Assembly: GCA_023140385.1 (NCBI GenBank) | Contig: JAGLLT010000026.1 | Location: 1 to 33,930, forward strand | Reading direction: 5' to 3' | DNA from: Candidatus Omnitrophota bacterium | GTDB taxonomy: Bacteria > Omnitrophota > Gorgyraeia > JAGLLT01 | DNA: 33,930 bases | Shown: positions 1-33,930 of the stretch, one piece after another | Layout: each line of letters opens with the position of its first letter | Numbering within the stretch: position 1 is the first letter of the stretch | Translations under genes and position numbers: made by a program | The notes under the pieces: model-generated | What the model was told of the DNA's origin: nothing | Seen by the model: only the letters and a program-made list of their open reading frames with translations | The model's database searches: none

Positions 1-49
1 CGCAATATGAGTTACAATGCACCAATAGAGCTCATATCTCCCTAAAATC

Positions 50-78
50 TTGACAGAACATAAGCAATATGATATACT
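50..78 (+). promoter_or_regulatory. sigma70-type promoter for the fadL-like operon
   Basis: TTGACA (50-55), 17-bp spacer, TATACT (73-78), with extended -10 TG at 70-71. Confidence 0.85.
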
Positions 79-100
79 TATCGCCAAAAGGATAAGTGAA

Positions 101-157
101 ATGACGCATTTCGATAAAGACAGCTATTACGTAAAGTATCTGAAAATCTTCTCTTAA
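101..157 (+). CDS. putative 18-aa leader peptide MTHFDKDSYYVKYLKIFS (not in ORF track)
   Basis: ATG at 101 preceded by SD-like AAGGA (88-92); TAA at 155-157 directly abuts the terminator stem. Confidence 0.5.
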   Translation: MTHFDKDSYYVKYLKIFS

Positions 158-185
158 ACCTCCGCTTTAAAGCGGGGGTTTTTTT
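157..185 (+). terminator. intrinsic terminator in the 5' leader (attenuator-like)
   Basis: stem AACCTCCGCT / AGCGGGGGTT (one G-U pair), loop TTAA, followed by a T-run to 185; lies between the promoter and the first gene. Confidence 0.85.
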
Positions 186-240
186 ATGGAAGCAAAAAGA
201 CGTTAATTTAAACTTCGGGACTCATTAAAGGGGCAGGCAG

Positions 241-1563
241 ATGAAAAAAGTTCTTTTTTTAGTTATAGGGGTGATTATTTTGTTTTTGTGTAGTTCTGTT
301 TCAGTAGAAGCGGGCGCTTATAAGGCCGCTGGTATTGGAGCCAAGTCTCTTTCAAGAGGAGGAGGCATTGGGGCGGTAGATGACTACACGGCAATCTTTT
401 GGAATCCCGCCGGCTTAACTCAAGTCGAAGAGAGCCACTTTACCATAGAGCCGCATTATCTTCACCTGAAGCAGGTTGACGGCAACTCGGTGAAGAACTA
501 CGATATTGCTAATTACAGCAATATGCAGGGGGACAGCTTTCTACGGATATACAATACACCGGGTACGGCTGTAGAGCCGGCTCAATTTGATAAAACAAGT
601 GCCATATATAGCAGTATAAGCCCCACTACGAGCTTCGGAGGGTCTTTTGAAATCAAGGGTTTTGATTTTGGCTTAGGCATATATACTCCCGCGGCGCTTA
701 GCACCGACTGGGAATGCTCGACGCGGGATTTAGTTAATAATGCCCTCATAGAAGCCGATTTCTTTTCCGGAATAAAAATGACCGCCTACAACATTTCTGT
801 AGCTAAGGAGATAAATTCTTATTTATCAATAGGAGCCGGCGTAAATTACCTGACAGGTGAAATGGAGGTAGAGGCTGAAAAGAGATATAGCTCTCAAGCG
901 GCGCCCGCGCTGGATTACCGGTTTGACTATAAGGAAGAAGCGGAAGGCGATGGAGTTGAGGGGGTGTTTGGGGTATTATTCAAGCCCCTTTCTAATTTAA
1001 AGATCGGCGGTGTATATCGAAGCGGCGCGGAGATGACCTTAAAAGGAGACTCATATTATAAGCACACCGCTTTAGGGATAGATGAAAGTAGTGATTATAC
1101 CCAGGATTATGATTTTCCTAATAGCTATGGAATAGGTTTGGCTTATGAGCCGGTTTCGGAACTGACCTTGCTGCTTGAGTGGGAGCGGACAGGCTGGGAT
1201 AGAGTAAAGAGAGATATAAATTACGACCTTGTTGGTGGAGCCGCGCTGATAGATGTAGACATAGATTGGGAGTGGAAGGATTCTAATCAGGTGCGTTTGG
1301 GGGCGGAGTACCGGGTTTCTCCTGAATTATCCGCGCGGGGCAGTATAGCCTGGGATGAGTCTCCTTTATCGGATGAAACGGTGAGTATAACCAATGTAGT
1401 TGATATAGATAAAATATACCTGTATTTAGGGTTAGGCTATCAGAGAAATAACTTTCAGTTTAACGCGGGGTATGCCTACGGCTTTGGCGACGATACTATT
1501 GACGGGGTTGATTATGAAATAATACTACATAACGTGATGTTGGGGGGCAGCTATTTCTTTTAA
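241..1563 (+). CDS. FadL/OmpP1/TodX-family outer-membrane transporter for hydrophobic compounds
   Basis: signal peptide; N-terminal GAKSLSRGG...AIFWNPAGL (NPA hatch motif); amphipathic beta-strands; C-terminal Phe. Confidence 0.85.
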   Translation: MKKVLFLVIGVIILFLCSSVSVEAGAYKAAGIGAKSLSRGGGIGAVDDYTAIFWNPAGLTQVEESHFTIEPHYLHLKQVDGNSVKNYDIANYSNMQGDSFLRIYNTPGTAVEPAQFDKTSAIYSSISPTTSFGGSFEIKGFDFGLGIYTPAALSTDWECSTRDLVNNALIEADFFSGIKMTAYNISVAKEINSYLSIGAGVNYLTGEMEVEAEKRYSSQAAPALDYRFDYKEEAEGDGVEGVFGVLFKPLSNLKIGGVYRSGAEMTLKGDSYYKHTALGIDESSDYTQDYDFPNSYGIGLAYEPVSELTLLLEWERTGWDRVKRDINYDLVGGAALIDVDIDWEWKDSNQVRLGAEYRVSPELSARGSIAWDESPLSDETVSITNVVDIDKIYLYLGLGYQRNNFQFNAGYAYGFGDDTIDGVDYEIILHNVMLGGSYFF

Positions 1564-1580
1564 AAGCGGAGGTGACAGCA

Positions 1581-3143
1581 ATGGATGACGAAAGGAAATA
1601 TGGAAGCGGCAGCTTGGAGAAAAGAAGGTTTACGCGCATAGTTAAGACTGTTCCGGTTGAGTTTAAATCCTGTCAGGCAGTGTCAGGGGGAGCGACTGCC
1701 AGAGATGTGAGTGAGGGTGGTTTGTGTATAGAGGCAGAACAGATAGAGCAGGAATCATTGCGGGAGTTACTATCTAAAAAGGCAGAAGTAAGCATAAAGA
1801 TAGATTTGCCGTCTGAATTTGGCGCGGTTGAGGTTGCGGCTCAAATTGCCTGGATAAAAGATAAAGAGGCTTCTGAGGGTAAGTTGTGTTTTGGGGTGAG
1901 ATTTACCGGGATACCCGAAGAATATCAGGGCAAAATTAAATTATATATTGAGCGTCAATCAAAGATAACGAAGTTGGATTTTGTTCCTAGAAAAAAGGAT
2001 AAAAATTTTGATCCTGAATTTGTTGCCCATAGGCGCCAGTGGCTAAGCGAAAAGACAAATACCAGATTTTTTCACACCGGTTATTTTTCTACTCCCAGTG
2101 AGGACATGAAAGGGAATATAGAGAACTTAATTGGTGTGACACAGATTCCTATTGGTGTTGCAGGACCGTTAAAAATAAACGGTCAATATGCCAAAGGAAC
2201 CTTTTATATTCCCCTTGCTACCACCGAAGGTACGCTAGTAGAAACATATCAACGGGGAATGCTTGTAATTACTAAAGCAGGTGGCGCAAATGTGATTGTT
2301 ACTAAGGATGTAATTAATGTTTCACCGGTCTTTATTTTGGAAGATATCTCTAAAATTAAGGGTTTCATTCTTTGGGTTGAAGAAAATTTTGAAAAGATCA
2401 AAGAAAAAGCAGAAAAAACGACAAGATATGGCAAGTTATTAAAAATTACACCTTTGTTCCTAGGAAAAAGAGTTATACTGAACTTTTGCTATACTACGGG
2501 GGACGCCATGGGGCTAAATATGATTAATATAGCCACGGATCGAGCCTGTGAATATATTAGGGAAAATGTAAAAACAGAAGGATTTTATCTGCGTTCTAAT
2601 TTTTCTTCTGATAAGAAAGCCTCGGTTTATAATTTAATTACAGGTTATGGAAAAGAAGTTTTAGTAGAGGTGACGCTTTCTAAAAAAATAGTTAATAGGT
2701 ATTTAAATTCTACACCAGAAGAAATTTACAATTTTTGGTATGTAGGTTTTCTTGGAAGTTATCAGGCAGGAATGATTGGTCTGAATGCTCATTTTGCTAA
2801 TGGTTTGGCTGCTATTTTTATTGCTTGTGGTCAAGATGTAGCTCAGATAATAAATGCTAATGTTGGAATTGTTATGTGTGAGATTACAAAAAATGGCGAT
2901 TTATGTATAAGTGCAAAGTTTCCAAATCTTGTGATTGGTACAGTAGGAGGGGGCACTTCTTTAAAAACTCAACGTGAATGTTTAGAGTCTATAGGATGCT
3001 ATGGTTCAGATAAAGCAAAAAAATTTGCTGAGATTGTAGCGGCTTCCATTTTAGCTGGAGAGATTTCAATTTGTGCAGCTTTAGCAAGCGGGGTATTTAT
3101 TAAGGCGCACGAAACCAAAAGAAATATTGCCCACACAGAGTAG
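1581..3143 (+). CDS. PilZ domain fused to class I HMG-CoA reductase-like domain
   Basis: PilZ motifs RRFTR and DVSEGG; HMGR motifs ENLIG, PLATTEG, TGDAMGLNM, SDKK, GQDVA, GTVGGGT and C-terminal His (KAHE). ATG 1581 preferred over GTG 1572 because GGAGGT lies at 1568-1573. Confidence 0.85.
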   Translation: MDDERKYGSGSLEKRRFTRIVKTVPVEFKSCQAVSGGATARDVSEGGLCIEAEQIEQESLRELLSKKAEVSIKIDLPSEFGAVEVAAQIAWIKDKEASEGKLCFGVRFTGIPEEYQGKIKLYIERQSKITKLDFVPRKKDKNFDPEFVAHRRQWLSEKTNTRFFHTGYFSTPSEDMKGNIENLIGVTQIPIGVAGPLKINGQYAKGTFYIPLATTEGTLVETYQRGMLVITKAGGANVIVTKDVINVSPVFILEDISKIKGFILWVEENFEKIKEKAEKTTRYGKLLKITPLFLGKRVILNFCYTTGDAMGLNMINIATDRACEYIRENVKTEGFYLRSNFSSDKKASVYNLITGYGKEVLVEVTLSKKIVNRYLNSTPEEIYNFWYVGFLGSYQAGMIGLNAHFANGLAAIFIACGQDVAQIINANVGIVMCEITKNGDLCISAKFPNLVIGTVGGGTSLKTQRECLESIGCYGSDKAKKFAEIVAASILAGEISICAALASGVFIKAHETKRNIAHTE

Positions 3144-3166
3144 CAAGAATTAAAAAAAGAGGATAA

Positions 3167-5281
3167 ATGCTTACCTATTTTGTAGCATTATGTTTTATAA
3201 CAGCCTTTTTTAGTTTATTTGCCGGTTCTTTTGTCTATTTAAAAAATAGAAAAGGAGCCCTCAATAGTGCTTTTGCTCTTTTGTGCCTAAGTGCATTTAT
3301 TTGGAGTGGAGGCTTAGGATTTGAGGTAATTTCTTCAAGTCAAAAGATAGGATTTTTCTGGTCAAGATTTCTCCATATGGGAGTAATTTTCATTACTCCT
3401 ACCTATTTACATGTTGTTGTTATTTTAGTGGGGCTTTATGAAAAAAAGAAGAGAATACTCAGCGGGGCATATGTCATTGCCTTTATTCTTTTTTTCTGCA
3501 ACTTTACCAACCTACTTGTTGAGGGCGTAAGTCCTAAATTATACTTTAATTATTATACCGATCCTGGTATGTTATACCCTTTACTGCTTTTGCTCTTTTT
3601 TTCATGTATGGGTTATGGTTTTTATCTGTTGGCCGCGGGATGCAGGAGGTTTTCTGGATTTAGACGCAATCAAATTAAATATTTTTTAATCGCAACACTT
3701 ATGGGGTATGTTGGTGGTACTCCTACCTATCTCCCCGTATCTAATATTTTTATTCACCCTTTTTATATGTGTTTGCTGCCAGTCTACTACTGCGTTCTTG
3801 CGTACTCTATTGTTAAATACCGCTTAATGGATATTAATATTATGTTTACCAAGGGGATTGTTTACATACTTTTGTTATTGTTGTCATCAGCAACATACCT
3901 TGGCCTTGCGTTTAGTGTTGATAAAATATTCTCACAGTATTCGGGGTACAATTCAAGCATGTCACACCTTCTCATTTTTTTGTTATTGATAGCCGGAATT
4001 ATACACGTGACTCCGCAGTTAAAAATTAAAACGGAAAAGGCGGTAGAAAAGGTATTGTTTAAGAATAAATATTTGTATCGTATTGCCTTGCAAAAATTTG
4101 GCAATAGGATTACTTATGACCTTTCTCAGGAAAAGCTTTTAAGTAACACGGTTAGTTTTATATCCAAGGTTATGCAGATACCCTATGTTTCAATTATGGT
4201 GAAAAATGAAATTTATGGCCATTATACTTACGGAGCTTCGGTTGGTTTTGACGATGATGAAATCAAAGGCTTAGAGTTTGCTGAAGACAGCGAATTAGTT
4301 AACTGGCTGTCTGACAATAAAGCGGTTCTGATTAAAGATGAGATGGAGAAAATACTTCCTTTAGAAAAAACACACCTTCTTGGTGAAGATATGGATAGGG
4401 TGAAGGCTTGTTTATGCATACCCTTATATGCCTCGGTTGACGTTATCGGTTTTCTGTGTCTATCTGAACGCGCGGCCAATGAAATATACTCACACATAGA
4501 TATAGGCTTGCTTCAGAGTATAGCCGGTCAAATTTCTCTGGTTATCGCCTATAAGCGCTTAGAGGATCACATGCTTCAGACGGAGAAGTTGGCTTCTTTA
4601 GGCACTTTGGCGGCCGGCCTTGCCCATGAGATAAAAAATCCTCTTTCAAGTATTCAAATTTTTGCTCAACTCTTTCCGCAGAAATACAACGATGAGGAAT
4701 TCAGAAATAAATTTAACAGGGTTGTAGTCCGAGATGTGCTCAGGATATCCAAGTTGATAGATAACGTATTGTCCCTTACTAAATCTAAGCCGGCTGAAGT
4801 TGTTCCTCATGACATCAATGATATAGTTGATGATACCTTGTCGCTGCTAAATAGCGAACTCTTAAAGAACAAAGTCAAGGTTATTAAGTCTTATGGTAAA
4901 CTGCCTCTTGTAAACTGTAACAATGAAGAGCTGAAGCAGGTCTTCCTGAATATTATTATAAACGCTATGCATGCTATGCCCGATGGAGGCACATTAAAAA
5001 TTACTTCTACTTTGGGCCCCCTTGCCACTTCGCGAAGTATAGAAAAAAGGCGTATTTTCGCGAGAATAAAAATTGAGGATAGCGGCTGTGGAATAGAAGA
5101 GAAGGTATTAAATAAACTATTTGACCCGTTTTTTACTACCAGGGCAGAGGGGACCGGTTTGGGCCTGGCGCTGGCTCATCGTATTATCAAGCAGCATCGT
5201 GGTTTTATTGGAGTAGAGTCTAAATTGGGGGAGGGCACGGTATTTTGGATAGACCTTCCGGTTGTCCGAGGTGAAACTTAA
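3167..5281 (+). CDS. sensor histidine kinase with multi-TM (HisKA_7TM-like) N-terminus, GAF-like domain and HisKA/HATPase core
   Basis: hydrophobic N-terminal ~280 aa; GAF-like CIPL...IGFLCL segment; H-box LAHEIKNPL; N-box QVFLNIIINA; DSGCGI; FDPFFTT; GTGLGL. Confidence 0.92.
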   Translation: MLTYFVALCFITAFFSLFAGSFVYLKNRKGALNSAFALLCLSAFIWSGGLGFEVISSSQKIGFFWSRFLHMGVIFITPTYLHVVVILVGLYEKKKRILSGAYVIAFILFFCNFTNLLVEGVSPKLYFNYYTDPGMLYPLLLLLFFSCMGYGFYLLAAGCRRFSGFRRNQIKYFLIATLMGYVGGTPTYLPVSNIFIHPFYMCLLPVYYCVLAYSIVKYRLMDINIMFTKGIVYILLLLLSSATYLGLAFSVDKIFSQYSGYNSSMSHLLIFLLLIAGIIHVTPQLKIKTEKAVEKVLFKNKYLYRIALQKFGNRITYDLSQEKLLSNTVSFISKVMQIPYVSIMVKNEIYGHYTYGASVGFDDDEIKGLEFAEDSELVNWLSDNKAVLIKDEMEKILPLEKTHLLGEDMDRVKACLCIPLYASVDVIGFLCLSERAANEIYSHIDIGLLQSIAGQISLVIAYKRLEDHMLQTEKLASLGTLAAGLAHEIKNPLSSIQIFAQLFPQKYNDEEFRNKFNRVVVRDVLRISKLIDNVLSLTKSKPAEVVPHDINDIVDDTLSLLNSELLKNKVKVIKSYGKLPLVNCNNEELKQVFLNIIINAMHAMPDGGTLKITSTLGPLATSRSIEKRRIFARIKIEDSGCGIEEKVLNKLFDPFFTTRAEGTGLGLALAHRIIKQHRGFIGVESKLGEGTVFWIDLPVVRGET

Positions 5282-5297
5282 GGCGAGAGGGAATATT

Positions 5298-6275
5298 ATG
5301 AACGAACGCATATTGGTAGTTGATGATGAACTTGGAATCAGAGAGTCATTGCAAATGATGTTGAGTGATGAGTATGAAGTCTCTATGGCTGACAGCGGCG
5401 ATGAGTGTCTTAAGGTACTTAAAAAAGACCGCGCGTTTTCTCTATTAATACTGGATGTAAGAATGCCGGGCTTAAGCGGGATAGAGGTTTTAAAGAGGGT
5501 AAAAAAGATGAGCCCTTCTTTGTCGGTGATTATTTTGACGGCAGTAGATACGCATGAGGCGGTGGTTGAGGCTTTAAAGTTTGGGGCAGAGGACTTTATT
5601 GCCAAACCGGTTGATATATATCATATGCGGGAAGTCATAAAAAAAGCTTTATCCAAGCCCAAAGAGGATAAAGCGCGAGTAAAAAAAAAGCCGATTTCAG
5701 TAGATGAGGTTTTGAATGAAAACTTCATGGAAGCCATTCAGGTTTTAACTGAGATAATTGAGGCTAAAGACCCCTACCTTAAAAGACATTCTAAGTGGAC
5801 TACCGAGTATGCTATAGCCATTGCCAGCAAGTTAGGGCTTTCTGAGGAACAAATGGATGTAATAAGGCAAACCTGTTTGCTTCACGATATCGGCAAGGTA
5901 GGGATTAGTGATGTTATTCTGCAGAAAAAAACAAAGCTTGCCCCTGAGCAGTGGGAGGCGCTGAAGAAGCATCCTGTAATTGGCGAAAAAATACTCAAAA
6001 ATTTTAGGCTTTTGCGCATTGAACAAAAAATGGTTCGCCATCATCATGAGCGGTATGATGGAAGTGGCTATCCGGATGGTTTAAGGGCAGAAGAAATTCC
6101 TCTCTACGCCCGTATCTTATCAGTCGCGGATGCTTTTGAATCTATGACCGCCGGCCGTGTATACAAAAAACCCCTTTCCAGCAAAGATGCCATAGAAGAG
6201 ATTAAAGCGGGAAGCGGTACGCAATTTGACCCCAAAATAGTGAATGTTTTTGTTGCCTTAGTTACAAAGAAGTAG
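5298..6275 (+). CDS. response regulator with HD-GYP c-di-GMP phosphodiesterase domain (RpfG-like)
   Basis: REC: ILVVDDE, LDVRMPGLSG, KP; HD-GYP: LHDIGK and HHHERYDGSGYPDGL. Start moved to ATG 5298 (GAGGG at 5287-5291). Confidence 0.92.
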   Translation: MNERILVVDDELGIRESLQMMLSDEYEVSMADSGDECLKVLKKDRAFSLLILDVRMPGLSGIEVLKRVKKMSPSLSVIILTAVDTHEAVVEALKFGAEDFIAKPVDIYHMREVIKKALSKPKEDKARVKKKPISVDEVLNENFMEAIQVLTEIIEAKDPYLKRHSKWTTEYAIAIASKLGLSEEQMDVIRQTCLLHDIGKVGISDVILQKKTKLAPEQWEALKKHPVIGEKILKNFRLLRIEQKMVRHHHERYDGSGYPDGLRAEEIPLYARILSVADAFESMTAGRVYKKPLSSKDAIEEIKAGSGTQFDPKIVNVFVALVTKK

Positions 6276-6334
6276 TAAAATCTAATACTGTAAAGTCCGC
6301 GGAAAATACATACCTGAGAAAGAGCGCTTAATTT

Positions 6335-7060
6335 ATGATTATTGCTAAAAACATAACCAAATATTTCGGAGAGCTTCAGGCCTTAAAGAATGTCTCATTT
6401 GAAATTAATAAAGGGGAAATTATTGGTTTTTTGGGGCAGAATGGCGCCGGCAAGACTACGCTTATGCGCATTTTGACTTCCTATCTTCCCGCCGCGTCCG
6501 GCCAGGTTTTCATTGACGGGCAGGAGGTGTCTAAGAACTCTTTGACTGTTCGCAAAAAAATAGGATATTTACCTGAAACGCCGCCGCTTTATTCTGATAT
6601 GACGGTAAGAGATTACCTTAAATTTGCCGCGCGGCTAAAAGACGTCCCGGCTAAACGGCAGTGTATTCAGATAGATAAAGCTTTAGGGGAGTGTAACCTC
6701 AAAGATGTCCGGCATAAAATCATCGGCACTCTTTCTAAAGGATATAAGCAAAGGGTGGGCATTGCTCAGGCTATAATTAATAATCCCGAAATTTTAATAT
6801 TGGATGAACCGACAATAGGCCTGGATCCGACCCAAATTATACAAGTGCGCGCTCTTATCAAAAATTTGGAGTATGAAAGAACCGTTATATTAAGCACGCA
6901 TATCCTCTCAGAGATTCAACAGATTGCTCATAGAGTTTTAATTATTAAGGCCGGCGAAGTTATTGTCGATAAAACCTTAAAAGATCTCCTAAAGGAATTC
7001 AATGCGGACCTTGAGGGTATATTTTTAAAACTGCATTTGGCTAAGGAGAACCAGGGGTAA
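6335..7060 (+). CDS. ABC transporter ATP-binding protein (GldA-like)
   Basis: Walker A GQNGAGKTT, signature LSKGYKQR, Walker B ILILDEP, H-loop STH. Confidence 0.92.
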   Translation: MIIAKNITKYFGELQALKNVSFEINKGEIIGFLGQNGAGKTTLMRILTSYLPAASGQVFIDGQEVSKNSLTVRKKIGYLPETPPLYSDMTVRDYLKFAARLKDVPAKRQCIQIDKALGECNLKDVRHKIIGTLSKGYKQRVGIAQAIINNPEILILDEPTIGLDPTQIIQVRALIKNLEYERTVILSTHILSEIQQIAHRVLIIKAGEVIVDKTLKDLLKEFNADLEGIFLKLHLAKENQG

Positions 7061-7770
7061 TGAAGAAGATTTTTGCTATTGCCAAAAAAGAACTAAAAGC
7101 CTATTTCAAATCTCCTATCGCCTATATTGTTTTAATCGTTACTATTTGCGTTTTTAATATATTTTTTTTCCTGATTATTGACGGGGACAGGGAAGCTGAT
7201 TTACGCGATGTATTTAAAGTTATGGAATTTTTGTTTATCTTCATTGTGCCGCTTCTGACTATGAAAATATTCGCGGAAGAAAAACTTTCCGGGACTATGG
7301 AATTCCTTATGACCACTCCTACGACAAATACAGCAATCGTTGTTGGTAAATATTTAGGCAGTTTAATGTTTTTCACTATAATTATCTGGATAACATCAAG
7401 TTATTATTTTATTATCGAATTTTTCGGCCAGCCCGACCGCCTGACTATATTAGCCGGATATTTGGGTATTTGGCTGGAGGGCGCCTTATTTATTGCTATC
7501 GGCATATTAATCTCTTCCTGGACAAAGAATCAGATTGTTGCCGCCATTACTTCTTACGCGGTCTTGTTTTTATTGTATTTTTCGATAAGTTTCATTAAAT
7601 ATTTCAACAGCTGGGCGGAAGCCGTGGTCCGATATATTGCTGTCTGGAGTCACACCGGGAATCTTGCCGCGGGCATTATTACTACGGCGGATTTGGTGTA
7701 TTATATAAGCGGCATTTTTGTTTGTATTGTATTCACAAGACTTAGTATTGAGAATCGATTATGGCGTTAA
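7060..7770 (+). CDS. ABC-2 type permease (GldF-like)
   Basis: KKELKAYFKSPIAY and PLLTMKIFAEEK..GTMEFLMT motifs; about 6 TM segments; TAATG overlap with the ATPase gene. Confidence 0.88.
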   Translation: MKKIFAIAKKELKAYFKSPIAYIVLIVTICVFNIFFFLIIDGDREADLRDVFKVMEFLFIFIVPLLTMKIFAEEKLSGTMEFLMTTPTTNTAIVVGKYLGSLMFFTIIIWITSSYYFIIEFFGQPDRLTILAGYLGIWLEGALFIAIGILISSWTKNQIVAAITSYAVLFLLYFSISFIKYFNSWAEAVVRYIAVWSHTGNLAAGIITTADLVYYISGIFVCIVFTRLSIENRLWR

Positions 7771-9386
7771 ATAGAAAACTCATAAATCCATCCTGGTTAT
7801 TCGGAATAGGAGCTGTTTGTCTTTTGTGCGGACTGGGGGCCGCGTATATAGAAAATCATTTCAGCAAATTGACTATTTTTATTTCTTTAGCCGGGTTGGT
7901 TAGTATTTTGATTTGTTTTTTTGAGTTAAAAAAGTTTACTCGTGGATCAAAGAGGGCCTTTCAATGGCAAAGATACGGCTTTATCGTGCTTGCGGCCGCG
8001 TCTCTTCTGACCTTTTTGGCGGGAGTTAATTATTTGGCCTATCACTATAATACGCGCTGGGATATAACAAAAGCCAAGCAGCACACCTTGACTCGAAGCA
8101 CTACATCAATTATAAAAGATATCAAACAGGAAGTTAAGGTAATAGCCTTTCATGTAGGGATACCGCCAAAGTACCTGGATGATTTATTTAAAGAGTATGA
8201 GAGACAGTCTAAAGGAAAAATCAAAACCGAAATCATTGATCCTATCGTGCGGATTGGCTATGCCGCCCAATTCGGCAGTGTGATAAGCGGAGAAGAAAGA
8301 AAAGTTATAATTATATCGGGGAGTGAGCGCAGGGACATTGATTTTACAGAGCAGCTGTTATCTGAGGAGCAATTAACTAATGCCATTATGCGGGTGGCGA
8401 GGGATAAGCGCGTTGTTTACTTTTTAACCGGCCATGGTGAATACGACGTTTTTAGCGAGGACGATAATGGTTTAAGCCTTTTAAGGGAAATACTAAGCGC
8501 TAATAATATAGAAACAAAAACAGTAATGTTGGGCATTAAAAATGAAATTCCGGATGACTGTAATATCCTTATCGTTGCCGGCCCTCGAAATCCTCTGACA
8601 GAAGAAGAGGATGAGATTATCAAAGGTTATTTAAAGAAAGGCGGAGATGCCCTTTTTTTAATAGAAAATACTCCTCTTACCTCACCTGATAAACCGCTTA
8701 CAGATGAGGAAAAACGCAAAAATCCTTCCTTGAATAACATTCTGGAATATTGGGGAGTAAGGATAGCTGATGATATTGTTGTAGACTTGTCCAATCATAT
8801 AGGTAAGGATGTAGGATGTCCGGCTACCCGTAATTATCCGCCGCACAAGACTATTGTCAAAAATTTGGACTATACCTTTTATATCCGTCCCCGCTCAATT
8901 TCGGTTTTAGATGATCGGCGTGAATCAGTTAGAGTGGCCCCTTTAGTTTTAACCGCTTCAAAAGAAAGCAGTTGGGGTGAGACCAATAGGACTCTGCATG
9001 TCCAATTTGATGAGGGGGTGGACAGGCCGGGCCCTGTTCCCATTGCGGTTGTTATCTGGGAACCAAGAGGGGAGGGTAAAGTTTCTGATGTCCCTGTGCC
9101 CTTGGAGGCACAGGCGGATACGGATACACGCATCATTGTTTTTACTGACGCGGACTTTTTATCCAACGCTTTTCTAGATAAATACAGTAATGCCGAGATG
9201 GGGCTAAATGCTATCAGTTGGCTTTCGGATTTGGATTACAGGATTTCTATCGACCGTAAGACAATTAAAATCGGTCAGCTTGATTTGACAAGCAAGCAAA
9301 AACGCATAGTAGCTGTTACCCTTTTTGCCATGCCCCTCCTTATCGCCGCCAGCGGCATAATAACCTGGCTCAAGCGGAAGAGTTGA
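7761..9386 (+). CDS. GldG-family ABC transporter auxiliary protein
   Basis: RWDITKAKQHTL, VYFLTGHGE, LIVAGP, DADFLSN motifs; N- and C-terminal TM segments. Confidence 0.85.
   Translation: MALNRKLINPSWLFGIGAVCLLCGLGAAYIENHFSKLTIFISLAGLVSILICFFELKKFTRGSKRAFQWQRYGFIVLAAASLLTFLAGVNYLAYHYNTRWDITKAKQHTLTRSTTSIIKDIKQEVKVIAFHVGIPPKYLDDLFKEYERQSKGKIKTEIIDPIVRIGYAAQFGSVISGEERKVIIISGSERRDIDFTEQLLSEEQLTNAIMRVARDKRVVYFLTGHGEYDVFSEDDNGLSLLREILSANNIETKTVMLGIKNEIPDDCNILIVAGPRNPLTEEEDEIIKGYLKKGGDALFLIENTPLTSPDKPLTDEEKRKNPSLNNILEYWGVRIADDIVVDLSNHIGKDVGCPATRNYPPHKTIVKNLDYTFYIRPRSISVLDDRRESVRVAPLVLTASKESSWGETNRTLHVQFDEGVDRPGPVPIAVVIWEPRGEGKVSDVPVPLEAQADTDTRIIVFTDADFLSNAFLDKYSNAEMGLNAISWLSDLDYRISIDRKTIKIGQLDLTSKQKRIVAVTLFAMPLLIAASGIITWLKRKS
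9093..9126. repeat. in-frame palindromic insertion in the GldG-like gene
   Basis: CCTGTGCC-cttgga-GGCACAGG perfect 8-bp stem followed by CGGATA x2. Confidence 0.55.
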
Positions 9387-9417
9387 AGCATCAACATTTC
9401 AAATTTGCTATAACCTC

Positions 9418-9446
9418 TTGACGTGAAGTTGTTTTTATAGTAATCT
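9418..9446 (+). promoter_or_regulatory. sigma70-type promoter upstream of the TauE gene
   Basis: TTGACG (9418-9423), 17 bp, TAATCT (9441-9446). Confidence 0.55.
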
Positions 9447-9476
9447 AATGTTTGATAAGAGTGGGGGGAGGTTGTT

Positions 9477-9836
9477 TTGGGTAGTTATCTTTTTGTTGTG
9501 GTGGGGTTGGTAGCTGGGATATTGAGCGGGCTTTTGGGTATTGGGGGCGGGATTGTTATGGTGCCCGCGTTGATTTACTTTTTTGGGTTTAGCCAGCATG
9601 GAGCCCAGGGGACTACTCTTGCCGCGATGATACTTCCTATAGGATTGCTCGCCGCTTTAAAGTATTATTCTCACGGACACGTTAGTATAGCTGTGGCTAT
9701 GTTTATTGCTATGGGGTTTTTTGTGGGCGGTTTTATAGGCGCTAGTTTTGTGGAGCGCGTTCCCGATGTTATGCTGAAAAGAATATTCGGGTTGTTTATG
9801 TTGGCTGTTTCTGTAAAGATGATTTTTGGGAAATGA
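9477..9836 (+). CDS. TauE/SafE (TSUP) family membrane protein, single-repeat form
   Basis: GLLGIGGGIVMVPAL and AQGTTL motifs; about 4 TM segments; TTG start after GGAGG. Confidence 0.85.
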   Translation: MGSYLFVVVGLVAGILSGLLGIGGGIVMVPALIYFFGFSQHGAQGTTLAAMILPIGLLAALKYYSHGHVSIAVAMFIAMGFFVGGFIGASFVERVPDVMLKRIFGLFMLAVSVKMIFGK

Positions 9837-9839
9837 GAT

Positions 9840-9906
9840 ATCCCCCCTTGTTTTCTTGGAAAACACGCAGGGGGGATCAATTCGTCCCGCCGCTGCGGGA
9901 CTCATT
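9840..9906. repeat. intergenic double-hairpin REP-like element
   Basis: ATCCCCCC/GGGGGGAT with inner TGTTTTC/GAAAACA, then AATTCG, GTCCCGC/GCGGGAC hairpin, CTCATT. Confidence 0.7.
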
Positions 9907-9918
9907 GAGGAGAAAAGA

Positions 9919-10332
9919 ATGATTTTTAAGGGGATGCTTAGGAAGAAGGGGGTTTATTTTTTTATGTTTGGGGCGGCTTTGGTTTTGGGGTGTTTGCCGG
10001 TGAATGCTTTTGCTATGCCGGTTGATTCTGTATCCGGCGGGGCGGGTTTGTCCGCGGCTCACCGGAGCGATTTGGAGACGATTACTAAATTTCTTGAGGA
10101 AGAGGCGGTGGTTGAGAAGCTGGCGAAGTTGGGATTGTCGGCGAATGAGATTGAAAGTAGGCTTGATACTATGGATGAGTATCAGGTTCACAAACTGGCG
10201 GGGAAGATTGATTCTGTCCAGAAGGCGGGTAGTGGGACGGGGCTGGTTATTGGGCTTTTAATATGTCTTCTTATTTTTATTGGATTTTTATATGTTACAG
10301 ACCGCAGTGTTAAGATAGAAAAAAACAGTTAA
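9919..10332 (+). CDS. PA2779-like exported/membrane protein
   Basis: signal peptide ending AFA; LAKLGLSANEIESRLDTM...KAG followed by a C-terminal TM helix; adjacent to a C39 peptidase gene. Start moved to ATG 9919 (GAGGAG at 9907-9912). Confidence 0.7.
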   Translation: MIFKGMLRKKGVYFFMFGAALVLGCLPVNAFAMPVDSVSGGAGLSAAHRSDLETITKFLEEEAVVEKLAKLGLSANEIESRLDTMDEYQVHKLAGKIDSVQKAGSGTGLVIGLLICLLIFIGFLYVTDRSVKIEKNS

Positions 10333-10339
10333 GAAAATT

Positions 10340-11407
10340 GTGAAGCCTGCTTTTCGAGTTTATTTCAGCGCGCTGTTATGTATGATTGTTTTGTGCGGCT
10401 GTACCGCTTATAATTTCGCGATTATTAAAGGTGATTTAGATAGCGATAAAGATGAAGGCCATTATATTGATGGCCTTCTTTTTTTTGAGCAGAAGAAGAA
10501 TTGGTGCGGCCCGGCGGCGCTGGCCGGCGTCCTGCGTTTTTGGAAAAATGAAGTATCGCAGGATGAAGTAGCCCATTCGATATATCTTAGCGGCATAAAA
10601 GGAACCCTTACCTTTGATTTGGAGAATTTTGCTTTTGAAAGAGGATACTTTGCCCAAAGCCGCGAAGCTGACCTGTATGAATTGGGCGATAGAATCAGAG
10701 AGGGCATTCCGGTTATCGTAATGCAGCGGATCCTGCCTTTGATTAAGAAGTATCATTATCTGGTTGTTTTTGGTTATGATGACAGCAAGGAAGTTGTCCT
10801 TGTTTATTCGGGAAAGGAAGAGCCGGAGCTTATATCTTATTCCGCCTTTAGCAGAAAGTGGCGGGGCGCCGGTAACTGGATGCTGGTAGTCTGCCCGCCG
10901 GAAAAGGTTGGCTGGGAGGTTGACGCCTATCACTTGAACAGGTTAGGCCTTTTGTATGAGAAAAGCGGGGAGCCGGATAAGGCCAGGGCTTATTATCAAA
11001 AGGCGGGCGATGAAGAAAAGGACAACCCCGCTTATCCCTTTAATCTGGCTAACACCTACCTTCTTGAGAATAATTATCAAAGGGCTATATCTTTTTATGA
11101 GGCGGCGCTCGTCAGGGATGATAAATATGCCGACGCTTATAATAACCTGGCTTACTGTTTGTCTGAAAGCGGAGGCGATTTGGATAAGGCCGAAGAGTAT
11201 GCTCTTCGCGCTTTAGAGCTTAATCCGAAAAACAGGCCGTATTATCTGGATACGCTGGGAAGTGTTTATCTGAAAAAAGGGAAGGCTGAAGAAGCGGTAT
11301 CCTGCTTTAAGGAAGCCCTGTCCTTTAAAGAAACACTTAGCAAAAAGGCCCTCAGGCAAATAGAGGAACGCTTGGACGCGGGAGAGAGTCTAATAAAGGG
11401 CCACTGA
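10340..11407 (+). CDS. C39-like cysteine peptidase lipoprotein with C-terminal TPR repeats (PA2778-like)
   Basis: lipobox LCGC; Q...WCGPAAL nucleophile; HYLVVFGYD catalytic His; TPR repeats (AYNNLAY, YLDTLGSVY). Confidence 0.8.
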   Translation: MKPAFRVYFSALLCMIVLCGCTAYNFAIIKGDLDSDKDEGHYIDGLLFFEQKKNWCGPAALAGVLRFWKNEVSQDEVAHSIYLSGIKGTLTFDLENFAFERGYFAQSREADLYELGDRIREGIPVIVMQRILPLIKKYHYLVVFGYDDSKEVVLVYSGKEEPELISYSAFSRKWRGAGNWMLVVCPPEKVGWEVDAYHLNRLGLLYEKSGEPDKARAYYQKAGDEEKDNPAYPFNLANTYLLENNYQRAISFYEAALVRDDKYADAYNNLAYCLSESGGDLDKAEEYALRALELNPKNRPYYLDTLGSVYLKKGKAEEAVSCFKEALSFKETLSKKALRQIEERLDAGESLIKGH

Positions 11408-11413
11408 ATATGA

Positions 11414-11442
11414 TTGACGCGTTTATTTTTATTTGTTAAGAT
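11414..11442 (+). promoter_or_regulatory. sigma70-type promoter of the pur operon
   Basis: TTGACG (11414-11419), 17 bp, TGt-TAAGAT (11437-11442). Confidence 0.7.
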
Positions 11443-11484
11443 GTAGTTGTTTTTAAATGAAGTCCAAGTATACGAGGTAAGCCA

Positions 11485-12780
11485 ATGATAAAAAGATATT
11501 CGCGAAAGATAATGCGGGATGTTTGGAGCGAGGATAACAAGCTTCAGAAGATGCTCGAGGTGGAACTGGCGGTCTGCGAGGTTCTGTCAGAAAAGAAGAT
11601 CATACCTAAAAAAGATTTCCTTACCATAAAGAAAAAAGCTAAATTTAACGCTGTAAAGATTAAAGAACTGGAGAAGATTACCAGGCATGATGTGGCGGCC
11701 TTTGTGAATAATGTCTCGTCTTATGTGGGCGCGGCGGGTAAGTATATCCACTGGGGGCTTACTTCTACCGATGTAGTTGATTCGGGACAGGCCGTACAGC
11801 TTAGAGAAACTGTAGATATACTGATAAATGATTTAAAAGGCCTTATGAGGGTTTTGAAGAAAAAGGCCGTAAAGTATAAAAATACGATTTGTGTCGGAAG
11901 AACGCACGGCATACATGCCGAACCGACAACCTTTGGCCTTAAGATGGCTCTTTATTATGAGGAGGCTAAGCGTAACCTTAAACGCCTCAACGACGCCAGA
12001 GATATTATTAATGTGGGCAAGATATCCGGCTCTGTTGGAACCTTTTCACACTTAGGCCCCGAGGTGCAGGATAAGGCCTTGAAAAAGCTGGGTTTGAAGG
12101 CCGCGGCTATTTCGACCCAGGTTTTACAAAGAGACAGGCACGCTCAATACATTTCAACACTGGCCATAGTTGGCGCTTCATTAGAGAAGATAGCCCTTGA
12201 GGTACGTAATCTGCAGAGGACTGATGTTTTGGAGGCGGAGGAGTATTTTTCAAAAGGCCAGAAGGGTTCTTCTTCTATGCCGCATAAAAGAAATCCTGTG
12301 CGAAGTGAAAGGGTCTGCGGGTTGGCCAGGGTATTGAGAGGTTATGTGGGTGTAGCACTTGATAATGTTGCCCTATGGCACGAAAGAGATATAAGCCACT
12401 CATCGGCTGAAAGGATTATTCTACCTGATGCCGCTATGCTGCTTGACTATTTACTCTCTGAGATGACTTATATCGTGGACAACTTAATTGTTTATCCCGA
12501 TAAGATGATATTCAACCTTGAGAAAGTACAGGGGCTGATATTTTCTCAAAGGCTGATGCTCTATCTTATCCAGGAAAAAGGCCTTACCAGAAAGACAGCT
12601 TACGACCTGATACAAAAATCAGCTCTATACGCCTGGGAAAAGAAGGTACCCTTTAAGGATGTCCTATTGAAAGATAAAAAGTTTTTATCCTACGTCGGAC
12701 CTAAGGAGATAGATAAGTTTTTTGATTATAAGTACTACTTAAGGTATGTTGATAAGATATATAAAAGAGTGGGAATTTAA
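11485..12780 (+). CDS. purB: adenylosuccinate lyase
   Basis: TRHDV, GRTHGIHAEPTT, GSSSMPHKRNP, WHERDISHSS. Confidence 0.97.
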   Translation: MIKRYSRKIMRDVWSEDNKLQKMLEVELAVCEVLSEKKIIPKKDFLTIKKKAKFNAVKIKELEKITRHDVAAFVNNVSSYVGAAGKYIHWGLTSTDVVDSGQAVQLRETVDILINDLKGLMRVLKKKAVKYKNTICVGRTHGIHAEPTTFGLKMALYYEEAKRNLKRLNDARDIINVGKISGSVGTFSHLGPEVQDKALKKLGLKAAAISTQVLQRDRHAQYISTLAIVGASLEKIALEVRNLQRTDVLEAEEYFSKGQKGSSSMPHKRNPVRSERVCGLARVLRGYVGVALDNVALWHERDISHSSAERIILPDAAMLLDYLLSEMTYIVDNLIVYPDKMIFNLEKVQGLIFSQRLMLYLIQEKGLTRKTAYDLIQKSALYAWEKKVPFKDVLLKDKKFLSYVGPKEIDKFFDYKYYLRYVDKIYKRVGI

Positions 12781-12798
12781 AGGATAGAAGGTACATAT

Positions 12799-24441: not shown

Positions 24442-25770
24442 ATGAAAAAGAAAATTATTGCAATTATAGTAATAGTCATTCTTATTGTAATCGGCGGCAT
24501 AATTCATCTAACTTTAGATATGCTTCCGATTGATGATTCTGATCTTGCTTTGGTTTATGAATCTATCCCTGATGAACAAAACGCCTTTTATTATTTTGAG
24601 AAAGCAAGCCAGGCAATGTATTTTCCGGAAGATAACAAGGATAGAATAGGTAAAATATTAGAAGAAGGTATAAAAGATAAGGATGTGGAATTTGTAGAGA
24701 ATATCCTTGATAAAAATAAAGAGACCTTTAAATATTTTGAAAAAGGTTTAAATGTAGATAAACTGCAGATACCCGAGATGACTGAGGGATTAGATGAATT
24801 AATTCCTTATCTTTTTGATTGGCAGCAGATAGCGCTACTTAATCAGTTAAAATCAATGTACTTTTGTAAGATAGATAAGCAGGATGAGGCTTTTGAAGCA
24901 GCTTTGGAGAATGTAAGATTTGGTTATATGATAAATAATTCAAAGGGCGGCTTGGTTCATTTTATGATAGGTGATGTCATAAGGGGAATCGGTAGTGGGG
25001 ATATTAATCAATTGGTTTCAAAAACCAAGTTGTCAGAGCATAAAGCTAAAGAATATATTAGTACCTTAAAAAGATATGAAGATGCAAGAGATGGACTGAT
25101 TCAAACTTATTTGTGTGAATATAACTATTTAATGCTTCATGGAATTGATTTAATGGAAAAGGGCATTGATAAAAACCTGAAAGGAGAAATTAAGAAAAAA
25201 ATACCTCTGCCCGGCTTAGAGAAGCAATTGGATAAAATGGAGACGACTCGTTTCATCCAACCTTTGTTTATTAGATATATGTTTCATCCCGAAAGAACAA
25301 AAAGTAAAATGGCTAATCATATAAGAGATATAATTACTGGGGTGTCTGAAAAAAACTATAAGGACATAGATTTTACTGCAATTGATAAATTTATGTATGA
25401 TCTGGAAAGAAATGCTGATTCGTCCACATGCATAAGAGTTATTAAAAGAAACGTCATAGGAAGGATTCTTGTGGATCTACTGATGCCAGGGATCACTCAT
25501 GTTATTGGTGTAGAATATAAAATAGAAGCAAGAATAAGACTTACCGAAATTCAAATCGCCTTAAAGGCGCATAAAGATAATCACGGCCAGTTACCAAATA
25601 GCTTGGATGAACTTGTGCCTGCTTATTTTGACCGGGTTCCAACAGATCCGTATGACGGCCAGCCTATTCGATATTCAAAAAAGGATAAGATTATATATTG
25701 TGTGGGTGAAAACCTGGAAGATGATGGTGTAGATGAATCAGAAGAGAATCTGTTAGGTATTAAATTTTAG
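24442..25770 (+). CDS. AT-rich hypothetical membrane-anchored protein
   Basis: single N-terminal TM/signal segment; helical body; C-terminal LPNSLDELVP...DPYDGQPIRY...YCVGENLEDDG resembling a pseudopilin (GspG-like) C-terminus. Confidence 0.7.
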   Translation: MKKKIIAIIVIVILIVIGGIIHLTLDMLPIDDSDLALVYESIPDEQNAFYYFEKASQAMYFPEDNKDRIGKILEEGIKDKDVEFVENILDKNKETFKYFEKGLNVDKLQIPEMTEGLDELIPYLFDWQQIALLNQLKSMYFCKIDKQDEAFEAALENVRFGYMINNSKGGLVHFMIGDVIRGIGSGDINQLVSKTKLSEHKAKEYISTLKRYEDARDGLIQTYLCEYNYLMLHGIDLMEKGIDKNLKGEIKKKIPLPGLEKQLDKMETTRFIQPLFIRYMFHPERTKSKMANHIRDIITGVSEKNYKDIDFTAIDKFMYDLERNADSSTCIRVIKRNVIGRILVDLLMPGITHVIGVEYKIEARIRLTEIQIALKAHKDNHGQLPNSLDELVPAYFDRVPTDPYDGQPIRYSKKDKIIYCVGENLEDDGVDESEENLLGIKF

Positions 25771-33494: not shown

Positions 33495-33930
33495 ATGAAA
33501 GCAGACAACCTTATCATAAGAAGGATATCCGCCTTACTGATACTGACAGGATTGACATTGAACGCCGGCTACGCGCTTGCTCTTCCTGAAGGTGAAGAGG
33601 TAGTTTCAGGAAGCGCCGAATTCTCCCGCCCGGATGATAATACCGTAAATATTACCACCTCGGATAAGGCAATTATCAATTATGAAACCTTTAACATCGC
33701 CCAGCCGGAAACAGTACGCTTCATCCAGCCCTCTTCTTCTTCATCTGCCTTAAATAGAGTTGTCGGCATAAATCCTTCAGAGATCTTCGGCAGTATTCAA
33801 TCTAACGGAAAGATCTTTTTGGTTAATCCCAACGGCATATTCTTCGGCCCCTCCTCGCGCGTGGATACCGGCTCTTTTTTAGCCTCCACCCTGGACATCA
33901 AAAACGAGGATTTTCAAAATAATAAACTAA
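33495..33930 (+). CDS. filamentous haemagglutinin-family (TPS domain) exoprotein, 5' part only; runs off the window and is absent from the ORF track
   Basis: MKADNLIIRRISALLILTGLTLNAGYALA-LPEGEEVVSG...AIINYETFNI...ALNRVVG...GSIQSNGKIFLVNPNGIFFG; no stop before the window end. Confidence 0.9.
   Translation, partial: MKADNLIIRRISALLILTGLTLNAGYALALPEGEEVVSGSAEFSRPDDNTVNITTSDKAIINYETFNIAQPETVRFIQPSSSSSALNRVVGINPSEIFGSIQSNGKIFLVNPNGIFFGPSSRVDTGSFLASTLDIKNEDFQNNKL

Follow-up and report, generated by a model that had tools for sequence, protein, structure and literature searches.

A 33,930-bp stretch of DNA, referred to here as the window, represents one contig of the 1.50-Mb, 57-contig genome (92.7% complete) of a small, anaerobic “Candidatus Omnitrophota” bacterium. 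Four consecutive genes near its start encode an outer membrane barrel protein of the FadL/TodX family, an enzyme that combines an N-terminal PilZ domain with the fold of class I 3-hydroxy-3-methylglutaryl coenzyme A (HMG-CoA) reductase (HMGR), a histidine kinase with a seven-transmembrane (7TM) sensor domain, and a response regulator that consists of receiver (REC) and HD-GYP domains (Table 1). Comparative analysis allows moderate confidence that this enzyme is an acyl-thioester reductase, gated through its PilZ domain and tuned by the 7TM-GAF kinase via the REC-HD-GYP regulator and cyclic di-GMP (c-di-GMP). This reading draws on the recurrent pairing of such enzymes with 7TM sensors, on the receiver domains that are fused to them, and on the genes found next to them. 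Two-component systems, c-di-GMP effectors, and HMGR are all known parts; their combination and the role that it implies for the enzyme appear to be new.

The domain assignments made for all four genes in a preliminary description of this DNA proved correct in Pfam searches. The FadL protein (positions 241 to 1563), the only homolog of this family detected in the genome with the window protein as a query, matches the Toluene_X profile with a score of 88.7 bits (profile positions 3 to 386 of 421) and starts with a hydrophobic leader. The PilZ domain has both of its motifs intact, R18xxxR22 and D45xSxxG50 (positions 1623 to 1721), with Gly50 invariant in 23 PilZ-HMGRs, and can be predicted to bind c-di-GMP. 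The kinase (positions 3167 to 5281), also the only one of its 7TM type found in the genome by a homology search with the window protein, contains the HisKA_7TM (E value of 1.3e-17), GAF (1.4e-7), HisKA (3.6e-11), and HATPase_c (3.9e-21) domains, with an HEIKNP H-box at positions 4625 to 4642 and intact DxGxG and GxGxG motifs (G1 and G2 boxes). In the regulator, the Response_reg (2.8e-27) and HD_5 (2.7e-35) domains retain the VVDD, LILD, HDIGK, and HHERYDGSGYP motifs, including the phosphoryl-accepting Asp53 (positions 5445 to 5456), the HD signature (5883 to 5897), and the HHExxDGxGYP signature (6042 to 6074). The c-di-GMP network of the host includes 7 GGDEF, 7 PilZ, and 6 HD-GYP genes.

Association with 7TM sensors and direction of control

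Gene neighborhoods were compared using the matches listed from scans of genome contigs and metagenome contigs. Most of these matches are distant HMGRs, and the locus counts given below are lower bounds. Open reading frames (ORFs) were called in 170 loci, of which L184 and L187 repeat L040 and L057, so that 168 are distinct. The queries were the window proteins and residues 1 to 300 of the kinase. None of the tblastn matches extended into the PilZ part of the enzyme; the PilZ forms in L048 and L055 were recognized later by Pfam. A 7TM sensor gene follows the HMGR gene on the same strand in at least 17 distinct loci, within 70 bp in 15 of them; in L154 and L193, ketosynthase and acyl carrier protein (ACP) genes stand between the two. 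Another seven loci, which belong to a second family of this phylum, were scanned separately. In five of these, the gene for a 7TM(-GAF) kinase comes right after that for a REC-HMGR fusion, with a 17-bp gap in L093 and an overlap with the HMGR stop codon in L094, L095, L097, and L100. Of the other two, L098 has a 7TM gene downstream of a plain HMGR, and L096, which is too short to show more, has a REC-HMGR followed by a REC-4HBT protein. Together with the window, this makes at least 24 loci (17 + 6 + the window) with an HMGR-7TM pair, and in 22 of the 24 the sensor gene lies within 70 bp of the HMGR gene or overlaps it. In two loci, the HMGR gene is disrupted next to an open 7TM gene: it is interrupted by TGA stops in L192 (positions 9326 to 10507) and split into two ORFs in L193 (positions 6392 to 7608), which may reflect decay or assembly errors.

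A FastTree phylogeny (LG model) was built from 285 HMGR domains, without HMGR ORFs of fewer than 330 residues, and two sequences from archaea served as the root. All 7TM-linked enzymes in it (15 loci and the window) fall, along with all 119 close database homologs, into a single clade of 149 tips with a support value of 0.889. Among the matches listed, a 7TM neighbor is missing from all 136 loci that lie outside this clade. Within a sample of 401 genomes of the phylum, HMGR genes are patchy: they were found in 19 of the 401 and in none of the two other genomes of the same family or the two of the same order. The 7TM gene is adjacent in 14 of these 19 genomes; three have HMGRs of another clade without a 7TM neighbor, and two could not be judged. 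Sensors of the HisKA_7TM type are far more widespread, with about 789 matches in 299 of the 401 genomes. An HMGR of this kind implies a 7TM sensor, and a 7TM sensor does not imply HMGR. HisKA_7TM sensors are unusually abundant in the phylum: some of its genomes of ∼2 Mb have seven or more matches, compared with any match at all in just 3 of the 14 control genomes.

According to the record labels, loci of this kind come from Nitrospiria/Nitrospirota (L003, L048, and L055), Elusimicrobia (L028), Omnitrophota (L057), and “Planctomycetia” (L040). The gene order of the window is not confined to a single genome, so that the absence of a conserved order, which the preliminary description had named as grounds for its own rejection, does not apply. 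It is repeated in L048 from Nitrospirota, which encodes FadL, PilZ-HMGR, a 7TM hybrid kinase, a REC-kinase, a REC-sigma54 activator, and a REC-HD-GYP regulator, and most of it is seen in L028 from Elusimicrobia, with FadL, an HMGR with a weak PilZ match (E value of 7.9e-4, below the cutoff), a 7TM gene, and a GAF-kinase. FadL is thus encoded directly upstream of HMGR in members of three phyla. Because the HMGR-7TM pair recurs in at least 23 other loci and in none of the 136 distant ones, the four-gene arrangement is more than a chance assembly. The preliminary description suggested a survey of HMGR genes for co-occurrence with FadL, 7TM kinases, and HD-GYP or GGDEF genes. The kinase was indeed found next to HMGR in at least 24 loci, but FadL is present in just 3 of the 24 and HD-GYP in 4; these two are accessory parts.

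The N-terminal domains of the enzymes indicate which of the partners is in control. Among the 120 best homologs, 23 (the window's own cluster included) carry PilZ, 13 carry REC, 5 carry the 4HBT thioesterase domain, and 79 are plain HMGRs. PilZ and REC, found on 36 of the 120 (∼30%), occupy the same N-terminal position, and both forms are scattered over the HMGR tree. The usual hallmark of a response regulator output is an enzyme that carries a fused receiver and is encoded next to a kinase. Exactly this layout, with the gene for a 7TM(-GAF) kinase directly after that for REC-HMGR, is found in L105, L093, L094, L095, L097, and L100. With REC or PilZ fused to the enzyme and the 7TM kinase adjacent, the comparative data place the enzyme downstream of the kinase, as its likely regulated output. 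They speak against the seat of a signal synthase, in which the preliminary description had put the enzyme. In the window and in L048, PilZ stands where the relatives have REC, and a REC-HD-GYP gene is present as well; since these two features go together, it can be suggested that the same control is exerted there through c-di-GMP.

Several related fusions are found in the same set of loci. L118 encodes a PilZ domain fused to a FabF-like ketosynthase (positions 53 to 1759), L154 has two tandem genes in which HisKA_7TM-GAF is fused directly to HD-GYP (positions 4015 to 8199), L057 carries a GAF-HD-GYP protein, and the L096 protein mentioned above joins REC to the 4HBT thioesterase (positions 2959 to 3885). 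In L040 (positions 6996 to 7982) and L193 (positions 5449 to 6366), the gene directly upstream of a plain HMGR codes for REC followed by a domain of ∼190 residues. These two proteins are orthologs (61% identity); their C-terminal halves had no match in Pfam, and what they share with the L096 REC-4HBT protein is limited to the REC domain.

Metabolic context and substrate of the HMGR-fold enzyme

The enzyme encoded at positions 1572 to 3143 is the only HMGR in its genome. Markers of isoprenoid synthesis were searched for in five or six genomes per marker, the window's and those of relatives with the same kind of locus, which are 92 to 98% complete. IspH of the methylerythritol phosphate (MEP) pathway was above the cutoff in all six genomes, whereas HMG_CoA_synt_C was found in none of the six, mevalonate kinase was above the cutoff in none of the six, and the archaeal type of HMG-CoA synthase was above the cutoff in none of five, including the window's own. 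The archaeal model produced two weak matches in the window's genome (42 and 21 bits against a cutoff of 353), both from a single open frame, close to fabF on contig C34, that is taken to be a FabH-type ketosynthase. No mevalonate pathway genes were detected among the 138 neighboring ORFs scanned in 21 loci. Given the completeness of the searched genomes, HMG-CoA synthase and mevalonate kinase are likely, short of proof, to be truly absent. These searches agree with the view of the preliminary description that this is an orphan HMGR. The enzyme can be inferred to function outside the mevalonate pathway and not to make mevalonate for isoprenoids.

Its relationship to class I HMGR is clear from both sequence and predicted structure. 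The HMG-CoA_red domain scores 381 bits in Pfam, a phmmer search of PDB sequences matched 6hr7 (E value of 1.2e-100), and the top Foldseek matches of the AlphaFold2 model (pLDDT of 80.4) are class I HMGRs, with a probability of 1.00 and a TM score of about 0.72 on the target. The TTEG, DAMGLN, SSDKK, NAHFAN, CGQD, GTVGGGT, and KAHE motifs are intact. They include Glu219 (positions 2220 to 2231), Lys348 (2604 to 2618), Asp422 (2826 to 2837), and His513 (3102 to 3113), which presumably correspond to the catalytic Glu559, Lys691, Asp767, and His866 of the human enzyme. Throughout the 7TM-linked clade, with its Solirubrobacterales subclade left out, Lys and Asp are conserved in 137 of 137 members, Glu in 128, and His in 126.

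Two positions of the substrate site were compared between groups. The position of human Ser684, in the substrate loop, is occupied by Arg341 in the window enzyme and by Arg in 126 of the 149 clade members, by Phe in 45 of the 46 ketosynthase-linked enzymes discussed below, and by Glu or Ser in enzymes from Bacteroidota and archaea. This pattern looks like a context-specific signature, although it is weaker than the evidence from gene context. The position of human Lys735, which we take, like the other residue roles derived from human HMGR structures, to bind the HMG carboxylate, is Val391 in the window enzyme. In the alignment, Lys or Arg is found in this stretch in 7 of the 16 enzymes from Bacteroidota and archaea and in 9 of the 137 clade members. 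Loss of the Lys735 equivalent was considered as a mark of a new substrate but proved nondiagnostic, as Lys/Arg is also missing in the other 9 of those 16 enzymes.

Gene neighborhoods are more informative. Ketosynthase and/or ACP genes are found inside at least six of the 7TM-linked loci (L118, L186, L192, L154, L193, and L106), for example, in the order ketosynthase, ACP, HMGR, and 7TM sensor in L186. In L122 and five database proteins, HMGR is joined to the 4HBT thioesterase in one protein. A gene for wax-ester synthase (WS/DGAT) abuts the HMGR gene in L018 (positions 9824 to 12532) and L114 (positions 9959 to 12518), two metagenome-assembled genomes of Solirubrobacterales that represent a subclade of the same clade without a 7TM neighbor, and in L013 an acyltransferase/DAGAT gene lies 670 bp from HMGR. 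Judging by annotation, which does not give the domain order, an AMP-binding domain accompanies HMGR in 29 proteins of about 940 to 1,140 residues, 11 of which have a PP-binding domain as well. Outside the clade, 46 of the 136 distant loci have a ketosynthase gene that ends within 150 bp upstream of HMGR, in most cases with a second ketosynthase gene and an ACP gene further upstream; the three fully annotated loci encode ACP, two ketosynthases, HMGR, and an FAD oxidoreductase, in this order.

Some details of these neighborhoods are worth recording. Wax-ester synthase/DGAT genes are likewise found beside HMGR in L145 and L152, outside the clade. The HMGR–AMP-binding proteins resemble carboxylic acid reductases, but with an HMGR-fold reductase, and 17 proteins from gammaproteobacteria join HMGR to a phosphotransferase of the APH/EcKinase type (these proteins are listed as P0125-P0154 and P0149-P0171). 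The cluster of ACP, a ketosynthase, a ketosynthase resembling chain length factor, HMGR, and an FAD-dependent protein similar to amine oxidases and CrtI is found in L006, L113, L136 (positions 7303 to 12872), and a further 43 loci; the lineages represented include Acidobacteriota and Thermoanaerobaculia.

Because ketosynthase, ACP, thioesterase, wax-ester synthase, and AMP-/PP-binding contexts all occur around this fold, it can be argued that HMGR-type enzymes are widely used to reduce acyl thioesters bound to CoA or to a carrier to the respective alcohols. The ACP-ketosynthase-HMGR clusters, the AMP-/PP-binding fusions, and the wax-ester neighbors suggest a large unexplored biosynthetic use of the fold. 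For the window enzyme, the HMGR-fold acyl-thioester reductase envisaged from the start is thus favored by gene context over mevalonate synthesis.

A genuine HMG-CoA/mevalonate enzyme that acts outside isoprenoid synthesis under c-di-GMP control, whether it makes mevalonate as a metabolite or a signal or oxidizes scavenged mevalonate to HMG-CoA, is an unlikely alternative. In favor of such a role, the window enzyme has the sequence and fold of a class I HMGR, and its active site is largely canonical, with the catalytic Glu, Lys, Asp, and His and most of the positions that contact HMG kept. Lone HmgR genes in bacteria with the MEP pathway are acknowledged, in a 2026 review (PMC13001223), as an unexplained loose end that needs study. 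However, neither a source of HMG-CoA nor a sink for mevalonate scored above the cutoff in the five or six genomes searched per marker, the genes that recur next to HMGR encode ACP, ketosynthase, thioesterase, and wax-ester synthase rather than enzymes of the mevalonate pathway, and the substrate loop position differs by clade.

Proposed mechanism and comparison with known systems

In the reading preferred here, the enzyme would use two NAD(P)H molecules to reduce a CoA- or ACP-bound acyl thioester (possibly of the 3-hydroxyacyl type) to a primary alcohol that feeds envelope or storage lipids. Binding of c-di-GMP to the N-terminal PilZ domain, the motifs of which are all in place, would set its activity. 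The 7TM-GAF kinase could sense a membrane or lipid cue, either the enzyme's own product or a hydrophobic compound that enters via FadL, and phosphorylate the REC-HD-GYP regulator, which would hydrolyze c-di-GMP and thereby tune the enzyme. This wiring is deduced from the gene order and from the relatives that have the same type of kinase beside a REC-HMGR fusion; the direct phospho-link of these relatives would be replaced in the window by a second messenger. FadL would serve as an optional outer membrane route for a hydrophobic substrate, product, or cue.

Several observations weigh against parts of this scheme. In addition to the low frequency of FadL and HD-GYP genes among the 24 loci, the HisKA_7TM domain is such a common, generic sensor in the phylum that the ligand of the kinase cannot be deduced from the neighboring enzyme. 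With 7 GGDEF and 6 HD-GYP genes in the host, the PilZ domain may read the global rather than a local pool of c-di-GMP. The window operon has no ACP or ketosynthase gene, and the only FabF of the genome is encoded on another contig. Most residues that contact HMG in the human enzyme are kept, so that HMG-CoA may still be a substrate. Gln replaces the catalytic Glu in 9 of the 137 clade members, 11 of the 137 lack the His, and L048, the nearest match listed to the gene order of the window, has Ile at the position of Asp690 and Phe at that of His866; some members may therefore catalyze another reaction. Finally, a terminator separates the only strong promoter-like site from the operon (see below).

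Among the closest known layouts is that of the Xanthomonas diffusible signal factor (DSF) system, which consists of the RpfF synthase, the RpfC sensor, and RpfG, a REC-HD-GYP regulator. As in that system, a membrane kinase and a REC-HD-GYP protein are encoded beside an enzyme of lipid-like chemistry, and the predicted output is hydrolysis of c-di-GMP; the regulator has the acceptor Asp and the HD and GYP motifs characteristic of the RpfG type. The differences are substantial. The window enzyme has the HMGR fold, whereas RpfF is a crotonase, and Pfam found no crotonase domain in the region from 241 to 9386. Unlike RpfC, the kinase is limited to 7TM-GAF-HisKA-HATPase, with no fused REC or HPt domain (Pfam). 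Moreover, the window enzyme itself carries a c-di-GMP receptor, replaced by REC in its relatives, and appears to be a target of the signal rather than its source.

This bears on a DSF-like autoinducer loop, in which the product of the HMGR-fold enzyme would leave the cell via FadL and be sensed by the 7TM kinase, HD-GYP would shift the global level of c-di-GMP and with it other behaviors, and PilZ would feed back onto the synthase. The RpfG-like architecture of the regulator, the FadL gene directly upstream of HMGR in three phyla, and the adjacency of enzyme and sensor genes across the 24 loci, as is often seen with synthase-receptor pairs, could all be explained in this way. Sensing of the product would fit too, although it is equally compatible with the thioester reductase module. 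Still, such a loop is improbable and less favored than a signal-gated reductase. In many loci with REC-HMGR and 7TM kinase pairs, the enzyme is the only visible output of the kinase, and control of the enzyme therefore fits better than cell-to-cell signaling. Furthermore, neither a crotonase-type synthase nor an RpfC-type hybrid kinase was found by Pfam in the region from 241 to 9386, and HisKA_7TM is a generic sensor in the phylum; the absence of FadL from 21 and of HD-GYP from 20 of the 24 loci points in the same direction, as weak evidence, given that many contigs are short. A chance or merely transcriptional neighborhood of four functionally unlinked genes, for which the abundance of 7TM kinases (about 789 matches in 401 genomes) and the variation of accessory genes between loci might speak, is highly improbable, with the same adjacency and strand seen in at least 24 loci from at least three phyla and at none of the 136 outside the clade, and with receiver domains fused to the enzyme itself.

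Other known systems share single features with the proposed signal-gated reductase. The archaeal and eukaryotic class I HMGRs (PDB entries 6hr7 and 1dqa) have the same fold, family, and catalytic Glu, Lys, Asp, and His. In contrast to them, the window enzyme belongs to a genome in which no mevalonate pathway was found, has an N-terminal PilZ domain, and is paired with a 7TM sensor gene; compared with the human enzyme, it has Arg in place of Ser684 and no basic residue at the position of Lys735. The sterol-sensing control of eukaryotic HMGR similarly has a membrane-embedded sensor govern an HMGR-fold enzyme. This is an analogy only: the window sensor is a histidine kinase separate from the enzyme and would act by phosphorylation or c-di-GMP, whereas the sterol-sensing domain is fused to HMGR and drives its degradation. 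In the PilZ-gated cellulose synthase BcsA, a PilZ domain with the RxxxR and DxSxxG motifs is likewise fused to a catalytic domain, and by analogy this type of fusion suggests allosteric control by c-di-GMP. However, the partner domain in the window is a proposed soluble NAD(P)H-dependent thioester reductase and not a membrane glycosyltransferase, and its PilZ domain is N-terminal and can be exchanged for REC among relatives. Another parallel is offered by fatty acyl-CoA/ACP reductases and by carboxylic acid reductases, with adenylation and carrier domains and a reductase of the short-chain dehydrogenase/reductase (SDR) type. The proposed conversion of a thioester to an alcohol and the association of relatives with wax-ester synthase or AMP-/PP-binding domains recall these enzymes. 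The folds are unrelated, and Pfam found no SDR or NAD_binding_4 domain in the window enzyme, so that the resemblance would be purely functional.

In the literature outside subscription journals, nothing was found on PilZ-HMGR or REC-HMGR proteins, on HMGR paired with HisKA_7TM, or on ACP-ketosynthase-HMGR clusters, and HisKA_7TM turned up there only in two census or review papers. The window locus and its at least 23 relatives make the question of lone HMGRs concrete, by showing them with a built-in receiver, a dedicated membrane sensor, and acyl-carrier neighbors. A broader and more tentative proposal is that this HMGR-fold family is widespread and has left mevalonate metabolism and that its signal-gated reductases form, along with the 7TM sensors, a bacterial membrane-lipid homeostat reminiscent of the sterol-sensing control of eukaryotic HMGR. 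In that case, c-di-GMP would directly control the synthesis of a fatty alcohol, a diol, or a precursor of ether lipids in Omnitrophota, Nitrospirota, and Elusimicrobia. The coupling might then be provided, a suggestion to be taken just as cautiously, either by a fused REC domain through direct phosphorylation or by a fused PilZ domain and HD-GYP through c-di-GMP. If the preferred reading is true, one of the best-studied enzyme folds would gain a new catalytic role, and response regulators and PilZ proteins would gain a new class of output. It would also tie c-di-GMP signaling directly to lipid chemistry in uncultured phyla about which little is known.

Operon layout and neighboring genes

The preliminary description of four same-strand genes with gaps of less than 25 bp holds, with gaps of 8 to 23 bp. 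The likely start of the PilZ-HMGR gene is ATG 1581, preceded by a GGAGG ribosome-binding site, which makes the first gap 17 rather than 8 bp. The second gap is 23 bp, and the third is 16 bp with the likely regulator start at ATG 5298, which follows GAGAGGG; an alternative TTG start is at 5262.

Table 1. Positions of the genes and regulatory elements in the window
Feature	Positions	Strand	Basis
Sigma-70-like promoter, TTGACA-17-TATACT with TG extension	50..78	+	11/12 consensus matches; consensus match only
18-codon ORF behind AAGGA (88-92)	101..157	+	Sequence
Intrinsic terminator, 11-bp stem with 6 G-C pairs, T-run	156..187	+	Also visible in minimum free energy fold
FadL/TodX-family outer membrane barrel	241..1563	+	Pfam Toluene_X, E 3.8e-25; N-terminal signal peptide
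PilZ + class I HMGR-fold reductase	1572..3143	+	PilZ, E 7.2e-13; HMG-CoA_red, E 7.6e-114
HisKA_7TM-GAF-HisKA-HATPase_c sensor histidine kinase	3167..5281	+	Pfam
REC + HD-GYP response regulator	ORF 5262..6275, likely 5298..6275	+	Pfam
ABC ATPase, ABC-2 permease, GldG-like auxiliary protein	6335..9386	+	ORFs and Pfam

The statement that the four genes lie behind one promoter stands in part. There is one strong sigma-70-like site, which is also the best promoter-like site in the first 10,000 bp, but upstream of the FadL start it is followed by the 18-codon ORF and then by the strong terminator, so that transcription of the operon from this site would need read-through. The 18-codon ORF is possibly a leader peptide or a small gene, and the unit from 50 to 187 could represent either a small gene or a leader-peptide attenuator; its structured part is the terminator hairpin alone. 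A search of positions 1 to 10000 against Rfam found no family at the gathering score, the two subthreshold matches being the terminator hairpin, and the fold of the region from 84 to 245 is not unusual (z score of −0.78).

The set of ABC genes starts on the same strand 59 bp after the regulator gene, with no terminator in between, and is possibly cotranscribed with the operon. The sequencing runs listed are six DNA runs of cold-seep metagenomes from two studies, with no RNA run among them. The transporter was considered as a part of the system and rejected as unconserved: among the matches listed, a homolog of its ATPase is found by HMGR only in L111 and L154. The remaining part of the window is taken up by housekeeping genes, including those for purine synthesis, trehalose synthesis, SHMT, NrdR/NrdD, and SurA. 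A 119-residue ORF at positions 9477 to 9836 matches just the C-terminal half (positions 128 to 237) of the TauE/SafE sulfite exporter profile and may be truncated or have a miscalled start. No Pfam match was obtained for the 442-residue ORF at positions 24442 to 25770, which is flanked by Sua5-LMWPc and RpiB, and a protein with the two-partner secretion (TPS) domain begins at the very end of the window (positions 33495 to 33929).

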